A DNA stretch of 62,338 nt. It comes from an uncultured Desulfobacterales bacterium. Its GTDB lineage: Bacteria > Desulfobacterota > DSM-4660 > Desulfatiglandales > JALVZP01. The notes below the pieces were generated by a model. It was not told the origin of the DNA, searched no databases, and was given only the letters and a program-made list of their open reading frames with translations. Numbering within the stretch: the first letter of the stretch is position 1; each line of letters begins with the position of its first letter. Positions 37,269 through 59,382 of this stretch are shown here, piece after piece. The stretch lies in contig CAYMUI010000056.1 in assembly GCA_964393645.1 (NCBI GenBank), positions 1-62,338 of the forward strand, given 5' to 3'. A program made the position numbers and the translations under genes.

Positions 37269-38273
37269 ATGGCAATATTAGAGCATGCAAAAGAGGTGTT
37301 AAAGATAGAGTCAGAAGCTATATCAGCTCTTATAAAAAAAATAGGGCCAGAGTTTGAAAAGGCTGTTGACTTGATACTCAACTCTAAGGGAAGAGTAATA
37401 CTTACTGGTATGGGAAAATCTGGTCTTATAGGAAGAAAGATTTCTGCCACTTTAAACAGTACGGGAACACCATCCATATTTCTTCATCCTGCCGAGGCAA
37501 TACATGGGGACTTAGGTATGGTCACGAAAGACGACATAGTAGTTGCAATTTCTAACGGGGGCAGGACAGTGGAGATAAACAGACTACTTCCCATCTTAAA
37601 AAACATAGGAGTTAAAATAATAGCGTTTACAGGTGATCCCAGCTCTCCAATGGCGAAGATGAGCGATGTAGTAATAGATGTAGGGGTAGAAAGAGAAGCC
37701 TGTCCGATGAATCTTGCTCCAACCGCAAGCACAACTGCCGCCTTGGCAATGGGAGACGCCCTTGCTGTAGCGCTCATACATTGCAGAAGGTTTACAAAAG
37801 AAGACTTCAAAAAATTCCATCCAGGTGGAAGTCTTGGAGAAAGACTTGCCAGCAGAGTAAAAGAGATAATGAGAGAAGGCAGTAAGATCCCGATGGTCCC
37901 GGAAGATGCCTCTCTGTCAGAAGTGCTCAATGAAATAAATCAAAAAAATCTTGGGGCAACACTGGTGATCGACTCAGAAAGAAGACTGCAGGGGATTATA
38001 TGTGATGGAGACATTAGAAGAGCTTTGGTAAAATACGGAAACATAAGTCACATGAAAGCAAAAGATCTTATGACCCCTTCTCCCAAGGTTGTTGACGAAA
38101 ATCAAAGTGCAGGCGAAGCTCTTTCATTAATGGAATTCTATGGGATTACTCATCTGGTAATAATAGATGAGCTGAGAAGGGTAAAAGGAATAATCCATCT
38201 TCATGACATACTCGGTAGAGAGGAGTTTAGAATAAATGCAGGTATACTTCCCACCAAAGGGTCTGATAGTTGA
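37269..38273 (+). CDS. kdsD: Arabinose-5-phosphate isomerase (KpsF/GutQ family, SIS + 2 CBS)
   Basis: TGMGKSG, HPAEAIHGDLG, LAPTASTT, GDALA, FHPGGSLG, CBS tail. Confidence 0.96.
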   Translation: MAILEHAKEVLKIESEAISALIKKIGPEFEKAVDLILNSKGRVILTGMGKSGLIGRKISATLNSTGTPSIFLHPAEAIHGDLGMVTKDDIVVAISNGGRTVEINRLLPILKNIGVKIIAFTGDPSSPMAKMSDVVIDVGVEREACPMNLAPTASTTAALAMGDALAVALIHCRRFTKEDFKKFHPGGSLGERLASRVKEIMREGSKIPMVPEDASLSEVLNEINQKNLGATLVIDSERRLQGIICDGDIRRALVKYGNISHMKAKDLMTPSPKVVDENQSAGEALSLMEFYGITHLVIIDELRRVKGIIHLHDILGREEFRINAGILPTKGSDS

Positions 38274-39105
38274 ACTGGTGAATCTTGAAGAAAAGCTCTT
38301 CTTGGAGCATCTAAAGGCCATAAAAAAAATGGCCGATGCTGTTATGCTGCTGAGCCCTGAAGTAGGGGATGGCTTAAACCTGACGGTAGATCAGAAAAAA
38401 GAACTAATAAGCCTATGCGCAGAAGCAATAAATGGAGAATTGCCCTTGATGATATTTATTACCGGCGACACGGAAGAAGAAACGGTAGAGAATATGTTGG
38501 AATTTGAATCTCTGCTAAAAGAGATTTCCTATCCTGGAAATGTCTTCTGGGTAGATGCGCCTCTTTACTACCATAGTAATAGAGGACTGCCCGATATGTA
38601 CAGCAGGTTTTCTTCCATAACAAGTTATCCTTTTATACTTTATAACAACGCAAAGCTTGTAGAAAAAGTCAAAGGACCGTTCAACAGGAGAAACATAAGA
38701 ACCTCTATCTTAAAAGAGCTGTCTTTTGAAGATAGAATAAAAGGATTGATATTTTTTGGAGATCTGAGAAGAGCATTGAATTATCAGAAAGCGGTGATGG
38801 AAAGACCTTCTTTTAGGATATACGACGGAGACGAAAAACTCTTCTTGAACTTTCCTAATAAAAACGGACTCGTATCTGTAAGTGCAAATGTAATTCCCCA
38901 AGTTTGGAAAAACATGTTGCACAGAGAACCTGAAGAAGGAAAGGGAGGCGGACTGTATCTTTTGCTGGAATTTCTGGATCTCCTTAAAGAAGGAGGAACC
39001 GAACTTATAAAAGCGCTTATAAAAGGCTCAAATTTGACTTCTGAGCCACCATTAGTACAAAGAGCAAAAGAGCTCGTAAGAAAACTGCAGGAAGAGGGGA
39101 TGTAA
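38236..39105 (+). CDS. Divergent DapA/DHDPS-family TIM-barrel protein
   Basis: VGDGLNLTVDQKKEL (cf. GTTGE..L..EE), APLYY, ILYNN, VSVSANVIP retained; catalytic motifs degenerate. Confidence 0.7.
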   Translation: MQVYFPPKGLIVELVNLEEKLFLEHLKAIKKMADAVMLLSPEVGDGLNLTVDQKKELISLCAEAINGELPLMIFITGDTEEETVENMLEFESLLKEISYPGNVFWVDAPLYYHSNRGLPDMYSRFSSITSYPFILYNNAKLVEKVKGPFNRRNIRTSILKELSFEDRIKGLIFFGDLRRALNYQKAVMERPSFRIYDGDEKLFLNFPNKNGLVSVSANVIPQVWKNMLHREPEEGKGGGLYLLLEFLDLLKEGGTELIKALIKGSNLTSEPPLVQRAKELVRKLQEEGM

Positions 39106-39527
39106 TGACAGGTAAAAAATTTTTTGTTCATCCTGTTGGAATCATAAAAAAAATTGAAAACGAAATCTTTATAGAAATCTTTCCAGAATACAAGGATGCA
39201 CTCCTTAATCTGGAGTATTACTCCCACATAATAGTAATCTTTTGGTTTGATAAAAATGATACCCCAGAAAAAAGAAATATCCTGCAGGTACATCCTAAAA
39301 GACACAAAGGAGCTCCTATTTCAGGCGTATTTGCTACATGTTCACCTGTAAGACCAAACCTTATAGGACTTACAATATGTAAGGTGAAACATATAGACAA
39401 AAATCTCATTAAGATCAAAGAAATAGACGCCTTTGATAATACTCCTGTCTTAGACATAAAACCTTACATACCTAAGAAACACATGCTCTGTGAGGAAGAA
39501 ATAAAGGTTCCAGAATGGATGAAGTAG
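39105..39527 (+). CDS. tsaA: tRNA (N6-threonylcarbamoyladenosine) methyltransferase TrmO/TsaA family
   Basis: HPVGII, YSHIIVIFWF, GVFATCSPVRPNLIG, IDAFDNTPVLDIKPY. Confidence 0.92.
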   Translation: MTGKKFFVHPVGIIKKIENEIFIEIFPEYKDALLNLEYYSHIIVIFWFDKNDTPEKRNILQVHPKRHKGAPISGVFATCSPVRPNLIGLTICKVKHIDKNLIKIKEIDAFDNTPVLDIKPYIPKKHMLCEEEIKVPEWMK

Positions 39528-41683
39528 AAAAGAACACGGAACAAATCGAAGGCCGGATAGAGAGAATTACATTCTTTAATGAAGAAAACGGATATACAAT
39601 AGCAAAGATAAAAATATCCGGAAAAAAGGAACCCATTACTGCTGTAGGGTACTTACTGTCTCCGAGCCCTGGAGAGATTATAGAGATGAAAGGAAAATGG
39701 GTAAAGCATCCCAAGTATGGGAATCAGTTTAAGATAACGAGTTATAAAACTCGTGTTCCCGCAACTGTATATGGAATAGAAAGGTACCTGAGCTCAGGTC
39801 TCGTAAAAGGAATAGGACCGATTATGGCTAAAAGGATTGTAAAGAGATTCGGAAAAGAAACGCTAAATGTTATAGAAGAAAACATAGAAAAGCTCAAACA
39901 GGTGGAAGGAATAGGAGAAAAAAGAATTGATATGATAAAAAAGGCATGGAACGAACAAAGAGAGATCAGAGATCTCATGATATTTTTGCAAGAACACGGA
40001 ATAAGCCCGTCCTATGCCCCAAAGATATACAAAAAGTACAAAGAGGAATCCATTCAGGTGATAAAAGAAAATCCCTACAGATTGGCAATGGACATATATG
40101 GAATCGGCTTTATTACAGCAGACAGGATTGCTGAAAAGCTGGGTTTTTCAAAAGATTCAGAGCTGAGAGCAATGTCTGGGATAATATATGTGCTTCAGCA
40201 AGTAGCTGACGAAGGGCATGTTTACTGTCCATATGATGAGCTGCTGGAAAGGTGTAAAAAAGTGCTGGATACAAGTCGGGACACAATAGAAAACGCTTTA
40301 AGCAGACTACAAGCCGAAGGAAAGGTAGTGAAAGATGAAGAAGCCGTTTATTTGTCTCAATTCTATGTCTGCGAAACAGGTGTAGCAAAGAAGCTTATAA
40401 AACTTATGGAAATGCCCAAGTCTATAAGAAGGATAAATACTGAAAAGGCAATAGAGTGGGTTGAAAGAAGGCTCGGAATAAAGCTTGCTGAAAGACAAAA
40501 GGATGCAATAAGAGCTGTGTCTGAAAACAAGGTATTGATTATTACCGGCGGTCCCGGAACAGGAAAGACCACCGTTATAAATGCCATAATAAAGATATTC
40601 TCCCAAATAGGAGCAAAGATACTACTTGCAGCTCCCACAGGAAGGGCATCTAAAAGGATGACAGAAACAAGTGGATACGAAGCAAAAACAATACACAGAC
40701 TTTTAGAATACAGTCCAGAAAAAGCAGAGTTCAAGAAAAATGAAAGATCCCCTTTAAACTGTGACATCTTAATAATAGATGAAGCATCTATGATAGACAT
40801 TGTCTTAATGTATCACCTCACAAAAGCCATACCTTTAAATGCTACCGTTATTATTGTCGGGGATGTAAATCAGCTTCCGTCTGTTGGTCCCGGAAATGTC
40901 TTAAAAGATATGATTTCATCTGGAATGTTTCCCGTTGTAGAGTTAAACGAGATATTCAGACAGGCAAGAGAAAGCCTTATAGTGATAAATGCCCACAGAA
41001 TAAATGCGGGCGAATTTCCCATATTTAGGTCTGAAAAAAAGAATCCTGATTTCTATTTTATAGAAGAAGAAGATCCGGAAAAAGGGCTTTCCATCATAAT
41101 AGACCTTGTAAAAAACAGAATCCCAAAAAGATTCGGTTTCAATCCTTACGAGGACATCCAGGTCATAAGTCCTATGAACAAGGGTATAATAGGTGCGGAA
41201 AATCTGAACGAAAAACTTCAAGAAGCACTCAATCTCTCTTCTTTTGGGATAACGAGAGGAACGAAGAAGATCAAACTAAGAGATAAGGTAATGCAACTTA
41301 GAAACAATTATGAAAAAGGTGTCTTTAACGGTGACATAGGCACGGTAGTAAAAATAGACCAGGAGAATCAAGAGGTTTTTGTGGCATTTGACACAGGTAT
41401 CGTTACTTATGATTATTCAGAGCTGGACGAAATAAGTCTTGCCTATGCTATATCAGTTCATAAATCTCAGGGTTCAGAATATCCTGCAGTGGTGATTCCT
41501 ATTTTTATCCAGCACTATGTTCTTCTTCAAAGAAATCTAATATATACCGCAATTACAAGAGGAAAGAAGTTGGTGGTCGTTGTTGGCACAAAAAAGGCCT
41601 TTCTGATCGGAATAAAAAACAATAAGATCCAAAGAAGATACAGTAAATTAGACAAGAGGCTTTCAGAAAGCGAATTGATTTGA
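39515..41683 (+). CDS. recD2: RecD2-like ATP-dependent helicase
   Basis: GIGPIMA HhH, GIGFITAD, GGPGTGKT, APTGRA, DEASM, GDVNQLPSVG, YAISVHKSQGSE, YTAITRGK. Confidence 0.96.
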   Translation: MDEVEKNTEQIEGRIERITFFNEENGYTIAKIKISGKKEPITAVGYLLSPSPGEIIEMKGKWVKHPKYGNQFKITSYKTRVPATVYGIERYLSSGLVKGIGPIMAKRIVKRFGKETLNVIEENIEKLKQVEGIGEKRIDMIKKAWNEQREIRDLMIFLQEHGISPSYAPKIYKKYKEESIQVIKENPYRLAMDIYGIGFITADRIAEKLGFSKDSELRAMSGIIYVLQQVADEGHVYCPYDELLERCKKVLDTSRDTIENALSRLQAEGKVVKDEEAVYLSQFYVCETGVAKKLIKLMEMPKSIRRINTEKAIEWVERRLGIKLAERQKDAIRAVSENKVLIITGGPGTGKTTVINAIIKIFSQIGAKILLAAPTGRASKRMTETSGYEAKTIHRLLEYSPEKAEFKKNERSPLNCDILIIDEASMIDIVLMYHLTKAIPLNATVIIVGDVNQLPSVGPGNVLKDMISSGMFPVVELNEIFRQARESLIVINAHRINAGEFPIFRSEKKNPDFYFIEEEDPEKGLSIIIDLVKNRIPKRFGFNPYEDIQVISPMNKGIIGAENLNEKLQEALNLSSFGITRGTKKIKLRDKVMQLRNNYEKGVFNGDIGTVVKIDQENQEVFVAFDTGIVTYDYSELDEISLAYAISVHKSQGSEYPAVVIPIFIQHYVLLQRNLIYTAITRGKKLVVVVGTKKAFLIGIKNNKIQRRYSKLDKRLSESELI

Positions 41684-58509: not shown

Positions 58510-59382
58510 CTATATCAAATTATACTGTTTCAATACAGTCTTTAGCTTCTCCAGATTTGCCTTGCTCATCGGACAAAGTGGAAGCCTAAGCTCTCCTTTT
58601 ATCTTTCCCATAAGTGAAAGAGCAGTTTTTACGGGAATCGGGTTCGTTTCGTAAAACATCGCTTGGCATAAAGGCAGCAGTTTAAGATACATGTTCTTTG
58701 CACCTTCTACATCTCCCTTTTCCCACAGCTTTATCATTTCTGCAGTTTCCTTGGGCACAATGTTTGCTATTACCGAGATAACCCCTTTCCCTCCGATAGA
58801 AAGTACGGGCAGGGTAAGAGTATCATCTCCTGAAAGGAGAGTAATTTTATCTCCTGCGAGATTTAAGATCTCTGCCATCTGAACAAGATTGCCAGATGCC
58901 TCCTTTATAGCAACAATCTCTTTTAGCTCTGCAAGTCTTGCCACAGTTTGAGGAAGCATATTTACCCCTGTTCTTCCTGGAATGTTGTAAAGAACCTGAG
59001 GCAAAGGCACTTCCTTTGCAATAGTGGAAAAATGCAGGTAAAGACCTTCTTGCGTTGGTTTGTTATAATAGGGAACTACCTGAAGCGTCGCGTCTGCTCC
59101 TGCCTCCTTTGCAAAAGCGGTAAGCTCGATGGCTTCCTTTGTGTTATTTGCTCCTGCACCAGCAATTACAGGAACCCTCTTGTTCACTGCCTCTACACAT
59201 ATTTTTATTACCCTTTTGTGTTCCTCAAAATCCAAGGTAGCTGACTCTCCTGTTGTTCCACAGGGCACAATCGCACTTGTGCCATTTTCTATTTGAAACT
59301 CTATAAGTTCTCTAAATGCCTCTTCATCCACCTTGCCATCTTTAAAAGGAGTAACTATTGCAACTATGGACCCTTTAAACAT
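58510..59382 (-). CDS. dapA: 4-hydroxy-tetrahydrodipicolinate synthase
   Basis: AIVTPF, GTTGES, PYYNKP, YNIPGRTG, IKEASG, SGDD, NPIPVK. Confidence 0.99.
   Translation of the reverse strand: MFKGSIVAIVTPFKDGKVDEEAFRELIEFQIENGTSAIVPCGTTGESATLDFEEHKRVIKICVEAVNKRVPVIAGAGANNTKEAIELTAFAKEAGADATLQVVPYYNKPTQEGLYLHFSTIAKEVPLPQVLYNIPGRTGVNMLPQTVARLAELKEIVAIKEASGNLVQMAEILNLAGDKITLLSGDDTLTLPVLSIGGKGVISVIANIVPKETAEMIKLWEKGDVEGAKNMYLKLLPLCQAMFYETNPIPVKTALSLMGKIKGELRLPLCPMSKANLEKLKTVLKQYNLI

Follow-up and report, generated by a model that had tools for sequence, protein, structure and literature searches.

The window (the whole stretch of DNA analyzed, 62,338 nucleotides) carries a gene, here called dapAL, that follows kdsD directly and encodes a protein of the DHDPS/NAL fold from which the Schiff-base lysine is absent. 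The genes and signals of the locus, and the genuine DapA of the same window, are as follows.

37269 to 38273, + strand: kdsD, arabinose-5-phosphate isomerase with a SIS domain and two CBS domains
38217 to 38224, + strand: Shine-Dalgarno-like GAGAGGAG, within the end of kdsD and 11 nt upstream of the dapAL ATG, read directly
38236 to 38273, + strand: kdsD/dapAL overlap of 38 nt, from the coordinates; putative translational coupling
38236 to 39105, + strand: dapAL, open reading frame of 289 aa, DHDPS/NAL fold, Schiff-base lysine absent
39105 to 39527, + strand: short trmO/tsaA-like gene (TrmO_N 107 bits; TIGR00104 121.6 bits)
39515 to 41683, + strand: recD2-type helicase, from Pfam, with a 13-nt overlap with trmO
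58510 to 59382, − strand: genuine DapA (PF00701 344.5 bits; GTTGE, LYNIPGRT and AIKEASG), used as internal reference

A preliminary description of this DNA had stated that dapAL overlaps kdsD and is stop/start-coupled to trmO, and the coordinates agree on both counts, since the dapAL stop and the trmO start have one base in common (TAATG). In three runs labelled metatranscriptomic, only a 169-nt piece within kdsD (37565 to 37733) was recovered from this region, and nothing over dapAL. The kdsD product scored 102 bits against Pfam SIS, 84 bits against CBS and 341 bits against TIGR00393 (cut-off 203.7), and a search of the genome gave no second KpsF/KdsD-type gene above the TIGR00393 cut-off, indicating that the genome has one kdsD, the housekeeping gene. 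KdsA, KdsB and WaaA are encoded elsewhere in the genome, and its true DapA sits in a dapB-dapA-dapF block.

The relationship of the dapAL protein to DHDPS is distant but extends over the whole chain. Its match to PF00701 is weak (31 bits, E 1.4e-7), although it passes the gathering score of 22.1, whereas its TIGR00674 dapA score of 41 bits lies below the equivalog cut-off of 206.15; among the Pfam and TIGRFAM profiles searched, DHDPS was the only functional family matched. A search for homologues returned 338 proteins, and the profile of the dapAL family matched solved DHDPS from end to end (E 9e-23). The AlphaFold model (pLDDT 95.3, pTM 0.93) has eight strands and was superposed by VIA-align on S. 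aureus DHDPS 3di0 with Z 30.5 and an rmsd of 2.4 Å over 262 residues (span 4 to 287); Foldseek gave a TM of ~0.75. Two of the checks that the preliminary description had proposed, the profile alignment to PF00701 and the structure prediction against DHDPS, came out in favor of a shared full fold. By homology and predicted fold, dapAL is a member of the DHDPS/NAL superfamily, with a (beta/alpha)8 barrel and a C-terminal three-helix domain. As judged from its sequence it is not DapA, given the score below the equivalog cut-off, the absence of Arg138 and the presence of a true DapA elsewhere in the window.

Three features mark the sites at which the catalytic residues of DHDPS would be expected.

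38353 to 38373, + strand: residues 40 to 46, SPEVGDG, in place of the GTTGE pyruvate-carboxylate/T44 motif, from alignments
38737 to 38757, + strand: strand beta-6, residues 168 to 174, IKGLIFF, from DSSP of the model, the HMM alignment to 3pud and family tables
38749 to 38751, + strand: Ile172 codon, at the Schiff-base Lys position

In the profile alignment to DHDPS 3pud, the family reads 'iaGli.fsG' against 'IVGIKDATG', which places Ile172 in the column of the Schiff-base Lys with one residue missing after it. It had been claimed from the letters alone that the Schiff-base Lys is replaced by Ile and that GTTGE has become PEVGD. The second is read directly in the window as SPEVGDG; the first holds in the profile alignment, the predicted structure and the family comparison, and it is Ile172 that the profile alignment puts at the K161-equivalent position. 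Across the family this column is filled by I, V, A, L, E or F, and Lys was found in none of the ~100 members inspected. The equivalents of T44 and T45 are E42 and V43 in the window protein, and both Thr positions vary across the family. Arg138 aligns with L141, beside an 8-residue insertion, and Tyr133 corresponds to Y136 in the window protein and to H, I, A, E, G, V and other residues in the family. Y112 (87% conserved) still provides the Tyr107-type Tyr. The motifs PxYY and LYN, which had been said to survive, are both present in the window protein (PLYY and LYN), but the Tyr of LYN is unconserved family-wide. On the alignments, then, the dapAL family does not belong to the class I Schiff-base pyruvate aldolases/synthases, for want of the beta-6 Lys, and of the proton-relay/carboxylate set (Thr44/Thr45, Tyr133, Tyr107) the Tyr107-type residue alone remains. 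Since the class I aldolase machinery is lost throughout the family, the protein cannot carry out Schiff-base aldolase or synthase chemistry on pyruvate.

Conservation in the family falls instead on residues in three other segments, here placed in a pocket by means of strand positions and profile alignments.

38560 to 38589, + strand: residues 109 to 118, PLYYHSNRGL, loop after beta-4, keeping the Tyr107-type Tyr
38680 to 38706, + strand: residues 149 to 157, FNRRNIRTS, conserved part of the 8-residue insertion after beta-5, at the Arg138 loop
38821 to 38835, + strand: residues 196 to 200, YDGDE, end of beta-7, at the SGDD position of DapA

The family conservation table shows N115 to be invariant (100%) and R116 to be 98% conserved in the first segment; the second is basic, with R151, N153, R155 and T156 conserved; and in the third E200 is invariant (100%) and D197 is 87% conserved. 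Further conserved polar residues on the catalytic face are N137 (99%), N153 (96%) and R179 (96%). D107 (94%) and D197 are family-specific acidic gains at strand ends relative to a Lys-bearing sister group. Of the 50 barrel positions conserved at 80% or more, the C-terminal face holds 32, among them every conserved polar one.

The gene shows the signature of purifying selection, with a median dN/dS of ~0.20 for dapAL against 0.13 for kdsD (54 pairs), seven of eight natural variants in a vent metagenome synonymous, and a reading frame that is intact in every genome seen. The earlier claim that a DapA paralogue without its Schiff-base Lys is still in use is thus upheld, and the roles that it had offered (ligand-binding regulator, scaffold or non-Schiff-base enzyme) are all compatible with the evidence. 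Essential catalytic residues that are lost, a fold that is retained in the model and purifying selection on the gene are, taken together, what would be expected of a pseudoenzyme.

The position of dapAL is also conserved. The gene directly upstream was kdsD in 20 of 20 and in 75 of 75 testable loci, usually with overlap, the distance from the end of the kdsD match to the inferred dapAL start in the 75 loci being approximately −34 to +35 nt. The same adjacency was seen in 25 of 29 loci and in 14 of 18 divergent members, and across other families of the phylum most dapAL genes likewise have kdsD upstream. The overlapping pair recurs in at least 15 GTDB families with its surroundings reshuffled. 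Beyond kdsD, no neighbor was common to more than 19 of 80 loci. Recurrent neighbors of the pair are genes for an LpxL-type lipid A acyltransferase, MlaA/C/D and transketolase, and waaA (Kdo transferase) is upstream in five dapAL loci. One of the few unlinked copies of dapAL adjoins an LpxL-type (lipid A) acyltransferase gene, and another is parted from kdsD just by an inserted methyltransferase-like gene. dapAL is therefore in conserved operon linkage with known Kdo genes. Of the gene order singled out in the preliminary description, the kdsD-dapAL part is conserved, whereas the trmO-recD2 part is local to the window's own family (L016/L017; 2-3 of 80 loci).

Within the phylum, dapAL was present in 56 of 401 sampled genomes (~14%). 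It was lost without replacement in situ, kdsD being kept, in genomes G009, G015, G024 and G032, and the genera lacking it belong to the same order. No KdsD residue separated dapAL-bearing from dapAL-free genomes in a comparison that had only four negatives, and no KdsD-dapAL fusion was found among longer homologues at E ≤ 1e-10. The 2704-aa protein P0215 combines an ordinary DHDPS domain with HATPase_c.

The nearest relatives outside the family form a rare and uncharacterized sister group of metagenomic proteins (P0183, P0184, P0194, P0196, P0203 and relatives; E 1e-8 to 1e-21 against the window protein). They share with dapAL the A-P-L-x-Y-H-S-N-R motif, an N-Y helix motif and G-D-E, and have a shorter version of its insertion with K-R-x-N-I-R-T. 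Unlike dapAL, they keep TTGE as well as the Lys, in G-[IL]-K-D-S-S-G. Their loci contain DctPQM TRAP-transporter clusters, a URO-D-like protein, an SDR and a second DHDPS paralogue, and no kdsD; they are presumably catabolic Schiff-base enzymes. Because HSNR and KRxNIRT are common to dapAL and this Lys-bearing group, the two motifs would be older than the loss of the Lys and probably recognize the non-pyruvate part of a substrate.

The explanation that best accommodates these observations is that dapAL assists KdsD and Kdo synthesis as an accessory protein that forms no Schiff base, most likely as a non-catalytic ligand-binding partner. We put this forward tentatively, on the basis of sequence and a predicted structure, and regard its chances as a little short of even. 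The dapAL protein would work with KdsD at the entry to synthesis of Kdo (LPS inner core), and its ancestors may have had their ligands among the 3-deoxy-2-keto sugar acids, to which Kdo itself belongs. What survives of the pocket, and is conserved most strongly, would be the barrel mouth, formed by the HSNR loop, the KRxNIRTS insertion, R179, Y183 and E200, and this mouth, being rich in Arg and Asn, appears suited to a phosphorylated or acidic sugar. The ligand could be any of the pathway metabolites A5P, Kdo8P, Kdo and CMP-Kdo, and the protein would tune, stabilize or channel KdsD activity. Some genera of this order have lost dapAL with nothing in its place, which speaks for a modulating role in the pathway and not an indispensable one. 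Operon linkage alone is no proof of a physical or regulatory link to KdsD.

The conserved polar residues and the acidic gains at D107 and D197 would fit a new active site equally well. In such a case dapAL would be a new enzyme on the old scaffold that works without a Schiff base, by acid/base or metal-assisted chemistry through D107, H113, D197, E200 and its cluster of Arg residues. Its substrate would be a sugar or sugar phosphate of the Kdo pathway (A5P, Ru5P, Kdo8P or Kdo, for instance), and the reaction might modify Kdo or belong to a side branch of its synthesis. The tight operon link to kdsD and the constraint on the gene agree with this, as does the near-invariance of N115, E200, R116, N137, N153 and R179 on the catalytic face, and a SIS isomerase paired with a TIM-barrel lyase would have its counterpart in PHI-HPS of the RuMP pathway. 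However, KdsA, KdsB and WaaA are all present and KdsC is uncorrelated with dapAL, leaving no Kdo step to fill; related genera without dapAL still have kdsD; no recognizable metal site or known catalytic motif was found in the protein; and DHDPS is the sole functional family that it matches. We consider a new enzyme somewhat unlikely on this evidence.

It is less probable still that dapAL is functional but unrelated to Kdo, its link to kdsD being a long-lived operon arrangement for expression. The lack of detectable co-adaptation in KdsD (four negatives) and the wide variation of the other neighbors would be expected of such an arrangement, but the overlapping adjacency has been kept over at least 15 GTDB families while everything around it was reshuffled. 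Of the few copies away from kdsD, moreover, one is still beside a lipid A acyltransferase gene and another is separated only by the methyltransferase-like insertion.

The remaining explanations fare poorly. In E. coli kdsC follows kdsD, and dapAL, right behind kdsD, occupies that place in a genome (96% complete) without a match to TIGR01670, so dapAL might have replaced the Kdo-8-phosphate phosphatase KdsC. We rejected this as very improbable: within the phylum sample of 401 genomes, KdsC is present in 45 of the 56 that bear dapAL, and a KdsC match is missing from 11 of those 56 and from 57 of the 345 others, which is no anticorrelation. Catalysis through another Lys, a fallback that the preliminary description had allowed for the Lys of IKG, is a still poorer prospect. 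K169 does lie three residues ahead of the canonical position in the window protein, but it is replaced by V, A, S, T, L or R in many members and, by strand alternation, is expected to face away from the barrel interior; K160, although 87% conserved, is located in the helix preceding beta-6 and is found in the sister group alongside that group's own catalytic Lys. The conservation table contains no conserved Lys elsewhere on the catalytic face, T44/T45 and R138 are gone as well and Tyr133 is unconserved, and both candidates were accordingly rejected as unconserved or wrongly placed. The idea that dapAL is merely what remains of a dapA-like gene in decay, with no function left, is scarcely credible, for although the catalytic residues are gone and the window lineage has further deletions (seven residues are missing from the TPL loop that follows beta-1, and the C-terminal domain is shortened), the intact frames, low dN/dS and synonymous variants, a very confident model and strongly conserved motifs in 338 homologues refute it.

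To our knowledge, every characterized member of the DHDPS/NAL superfamily uses the same Schiff-base Lys, and Kdo synthesis has been studied almost only in Proteobacteria. Our literature search returned nothing on a Lys-less DHDPS family or on a KdsD partner of this kind. It is quite possible, if on balance doubtful, that dapAL is the first pseudoenzyme of this superfamily to be found in nature, or its first member re-tooled to work without a Schiff base: a former sugar-acid aldolase, recruited to serve arabinose-5-phosphate isomerase specifically, that senses or processes a Kdo-pathway metabolite. If so, it would add a control point or a reaction, not known before, where sulfate-reducing Desulfobacterota enter LPS inner-core synthesis. 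The near-absolute coupling to kdsD points to a so far unrecognized component of Kdo synthesis at its first committed step. An old, conserved branch that lacks both the Lys and the catalytic set suggests that the DHDPS/NAL scaffold is able to take another job. The current annotation, 'dihydrodipicolinate synthase family protein', misleads metabolic reconstruction of hydrocarbon-degrading and vent Desulfobacterota.

Comparison with known systems places dapAL close to DHDPS in fold and far from it in sequence. DapA/DHDPS (3di0, 1dhp, 3pud) have the same whole-chain fold as the dapAL model (Z 28 to 30.5, rmsd ~2.5 Å, ~260 residues) at 16 to 18% identity. dapAL keeps the Tyr107-type Tyr, the Asn of LYN, the G-D-(D/E) turn after beta-7 and S-x-x-A-N-x-x-P of beta-8, and departs from DHDPS in Ile172 with its adjoining deletion, in the absence of T44/T45 and Arg138 and in the 8-residue insertion after beta-5. 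N-acetylneuraminate lyase and the KD(P)G aldolases (1f6p, 5zka, 2r94) also share the fold (Z ~28), and their ligands are 3-deoxy-2-keto sugar acids, which, as the chemical class of Kdo, fits a link of dapAL to Kdo synthesis. Those enzymes, in contrast, are catabolic, use the beta-6 Lys and are typically encoded beside transporters and kinases rather than beside kdsD. KdsC has the same operon position behind kdsD as dapAL but an unrelated fold (HAD). The state of dapAL may be compared with that of engineered Lys mutants (DHDPS K161A, 3i7q; sialic acid aldolase, 6rd1 and 4ime), which show that removal of the Lys leaves a stable fold and, according to the PDB titles, that sugar acids can still be bound. 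These laboratory mutants, however, have otherwise intact active sites, whereas the dapAL family has lost the rest of the catalytic set too and has long been, and stayed, without the Lys.

The DapA-like gene (dapAL) follows kdsD, the arabinose-5-phosphate isomerase gene at the entry to Kdo synthesis.

37269-38273, + strand: kdsD, directly 5' of dapAL
38236-39105, + strand: dapAL, an ORF of 289 aa

kdsD and dapAL share 38 nt, and a Shine-Dalgarno-like element, GAGAGGAG, lies within the end of kdsD, 11 nt 5' of the dapAL ATG. The dapAL stop and the start of a trmO-like gene have one base in common (TAATG), the coding regions of the trmO-like gene and recD2 overlap, and no prominent terminator-like site was found between these genes on the + strand. 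ORF coordinates and junction sequence are those expected from the preliminary description, which placed dapAL in overlap with kdsD and in stop/start coupling to trmO. The trmO/tsaA-like gene (39105-39527, + strand) encodes just 140 aa, with a match limited to the N-terminal TrmO domain (TIGR00104, 121.6 bits), and is translationally coupled to dapAL on one side and to recD2 on the other. Three runs from one sample, labelled metatranscriptomic, contained an identical 169-nt contig within kdsD (37565-37733); the rest of the 2.4-kb stretch, dapAL included, was absent from them.

The dapAL protein passed Pfam PF00701 narrowly (31 bits, cut-off 22.1) and clearly failed the DapA equivalog model (41 bits, cut-off 206); the true DapA of the genome (58510-59382, - strand; 344 bits) is flanked by dapB-like and dapF-like ORFs. 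An AlphaFold model made from an 82-sequence family alignment was very confident (pLDDT 95.3, pTM 0.93), with eight strands and C-terminal helices, and superposed over its full length on solved DHDPS, NAL and KD(P)G aldolase structures (Foldseek TM ~0.75; against 3di0 by VIA-align, Z 30.5 and rmsd 2.4 Å over 262 residues). The family profile aligned end to end with solved DHDPS (E 9e-23) and set 'iaGli.fsG' opposite 'IVGIKDATG', so that Ile172 is the equivalent of the Schiff-base Lys and is followed by a one-residue deletion. In the model, strand beta-6 comprises residues 168-174 (IKGLIFF). Profile alignment, predicted whole-chain DHDPS fold and family comparison together confirm the original proposal of a DapA paralogue without the Schiff-base Lys. 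Other active-site features have changed as well: T44/T45 of GTTGE are E42/V43, both positions being variable across the family, the Arg138 equivalent is Leu141, beside an 8-residue insertion in the profile alignment, and the Tyr of LYN, retained in this protein, is unconstrained family-wide.

A word-index search recovered 338 dapAL homologues, mostly of ~316 aa; the named ones came from Desulfobacterota/'Deltaproteobacteria' MAGs with 'dihydrodipicolinate synthase family protein' as their sole annotation. When 1.84 billion cluster representatives were searched exhaustively, only 109 clusters scored E <= 1e-3, of which 76 reached E <= 1e-10. Organism labels were Desulfobacterales, Desulfobacteraceae, Desulfatiglandales and Ca. 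Desulfacyla, with a few bins labelled otherwise, and no NCBIfam model covering the family was found. One copy is present in 34 of the 41 genomes from the order to which the window belongs; in the phylum sample, 56 of 401 genomes (the window's own counted) have a true member, scoring at least 250 bits vs at most 96 bits for ordinary DapA. Lys occupied the catalytic column in none of the full-length core members and in 0/18 divergent members drawn from additional families. Proteins of the window's own clade are reduced: 7 residues of the TPL loop that follows beta-1 are missing, and the C-terminal domain is shorter. At genus level (with homologues P0002, P0004 and P0005), the deletion takes the near-universal T-P-L loop (38236-38300, family alignment A1), and the C-terminal domain is ~20 residues shorter than in the rest of the family.

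Fifty barrel positions are at least 80% conserved, 32 of them on the C-terminal (catalytic) face, where every conserved polar residue lies: D107, H113, S114, N115 (100%), R116, N137, R151, N153, R155, T156, R179, D197, E200 (100%), S214 and N218. D107 and D197 are gains of the family relative to its nearest outside relatives, a handful of Lys-bearing metagenomic proteins (P0183, P0184, P0194, P0196, P0203). This sister group shares with the family the A-P-L-x-Y-H-S-N-R, N-Y and G-D-E motifs and the K-R-x-N-I-R-T insertion, but retains TTGE and the Lys in G-[IL]-K-D-S-S-G. For P0196, relatives were located in DctPQM TRAP-transporter clusters that also encode a second DHDPS paralogue, an SDR and a URO-D-like protein and have no kdsD. 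The conserved cluster on metagenome contigs (L160:1831-7865; also L156, L157, L162, L163) contains URO-D-like, DctP, DctQ, DctM, DHDPS-like and second DHDPS paralogue genes, sometimes with an SDR, and seems to represent an uncharacterised, TRAP-dependent pathway of organic-acid catabolism. We infer that the family's ancestor was a catabolic Schiff-base enzyme acting on an organic or sugar acid, and that pyruvate chemistry was lost while the parts recognising the ligand's non-pyruvate end were retained.

Linkage to kdsD extends well beyond the window. In 20/20 loci from six families of the window's order, kdsD immediately precedes dapAL on the same strand, as it does on all 75 public contigs that reach far enough upstream (apparent spacing -34 to +35 nt), in 25/29 phylum-sample loci and for 14/18 divergent members. 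Of the gene order initially put forward for a conservation check, the kdsD-dapAL part held, whereas a downstream trmO-recD2 was confined to the window's own family. The window's kdsD is the single KpsF/KdsD-type gene of its genome, which elsewhere encodes KdsA (TIGR01362, 387 bits), KdsB and two WaaA genes; dapAL forms a bicistronic unit with this housekeeping kdsD. In one exception to adjacency, a methyltransferase-like ORF separates the pair; this 467-aa, N6-adenine methyltransferase-like NPPW-motif protein (L185:4254-5654 = L140:84-1484, genome G304) had no Pfam or NCBIfam match and, among the loci compared, occurred in this genome alone. Another, unlinked dapAL copy adjoins a lipid A late acyltransferase. 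No neighbour besides kdsD was common to more than 19 of 80 loci; recurring ones were waaA (Kdo transferase; directly upstream in 5 loci), MlaA/C/D, TonB-ExbBD and transketolase. In 16/80 loci (L049:2736-3827 (-) and 15 others; neighbour cluster 5), the opposite strand just 3' of the pair encodes a 364-aa protein without Pfam or NCBIfam match.

The dapAL protein probably cooperates with KdsD where Kdo synthesis begins, and we tentatively favor a non-catalytic ligand-binding partner. Such a pseudoenzyme would bind a phosphorylated or acidic sugar at its Arg/Asn-rich barrel mouth and may modulate or assist KdsD. Ranked second is re-tooling into an enzyme whose new chemistry needs no Schiff base, which is possible but somewhat less likely. 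The natural ligands of the DHDPS/NAL superfamily are 3-deoxy-2-keto sugar acids, Kdo's chemical class, so either Kdo-related reading is chemically sensible; a role unrelated to Kdo seems improbable. No dapAL-KdsD fusion was found in the homologue search, and no KdsD signature residue tracked dapAL presence in a comparison with four genomes lacking the gene.

Replacement of KdsC, the Kdo-8-P phosphatase, by dapAL would fit the position that kdsC occupies in E. coli, after kdsD, and KdsC (TIGR01670) gave no match even at E 0.01 in the window's 96%-complete genome, where KdsD, KdsA, KdsB and two WaaA are present. However, KdsC was missing from 11/56 phylum-sample genomes with dapAL vs 57/345 without, which refutes this as a general role and leaves it very unlikely. 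KdsC was likewise not found in G003, of the window's family, or in G007. In four in-order genomes without dapAL, an orthologous kdsD (62-65% identity) is retained and the next gene is convergent; dapAL either was never acquired or has disappeared there, and nothing occupies its place, which favors an accessory role. The kdsD matches in two genomes of one genus, both without dapAL (G009:C72:6334-7320 and G032:C128:23132-24118), contain one in-frame TAA each, probably the gene end within the matched range.

A Schiff-base aldolase using another Lys is scarcely credible. K169, the fallback in IKG first suggested, is V/A/S/T/L/R in many members and, by strand alternation in the model, should point away from the barrel interior; K160, the sole well-conserved Lys (87%), lies in the helix ahead of beta-6 and is also present in the Lys-bearing sister group, so it is not a substitute. 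Decay of the gene is the least probable reading of all, given a median dN/dS of 0.20 (range 0.13-0.44) vs 0.13 for kdsD over the same 54 non-independent genome pairs, and a hydrothermal-vent metagenome containing the stretch in which 7/8 variants within dapAL were synonymous (the eighth being R167K). Judged from its sequence, dapAL is a functional gene, and its product is a conserved DHDPS-fold protein under selection that lacks the Lys.

Full-text literature searching uncovered neither a reported DHDPS/NAL family devoid of the Lys nor a reported protein partner of KdsD. A known fold and superfamily is here combined with absence of the defining catalytic feature and with a new, very consistent genomic association.
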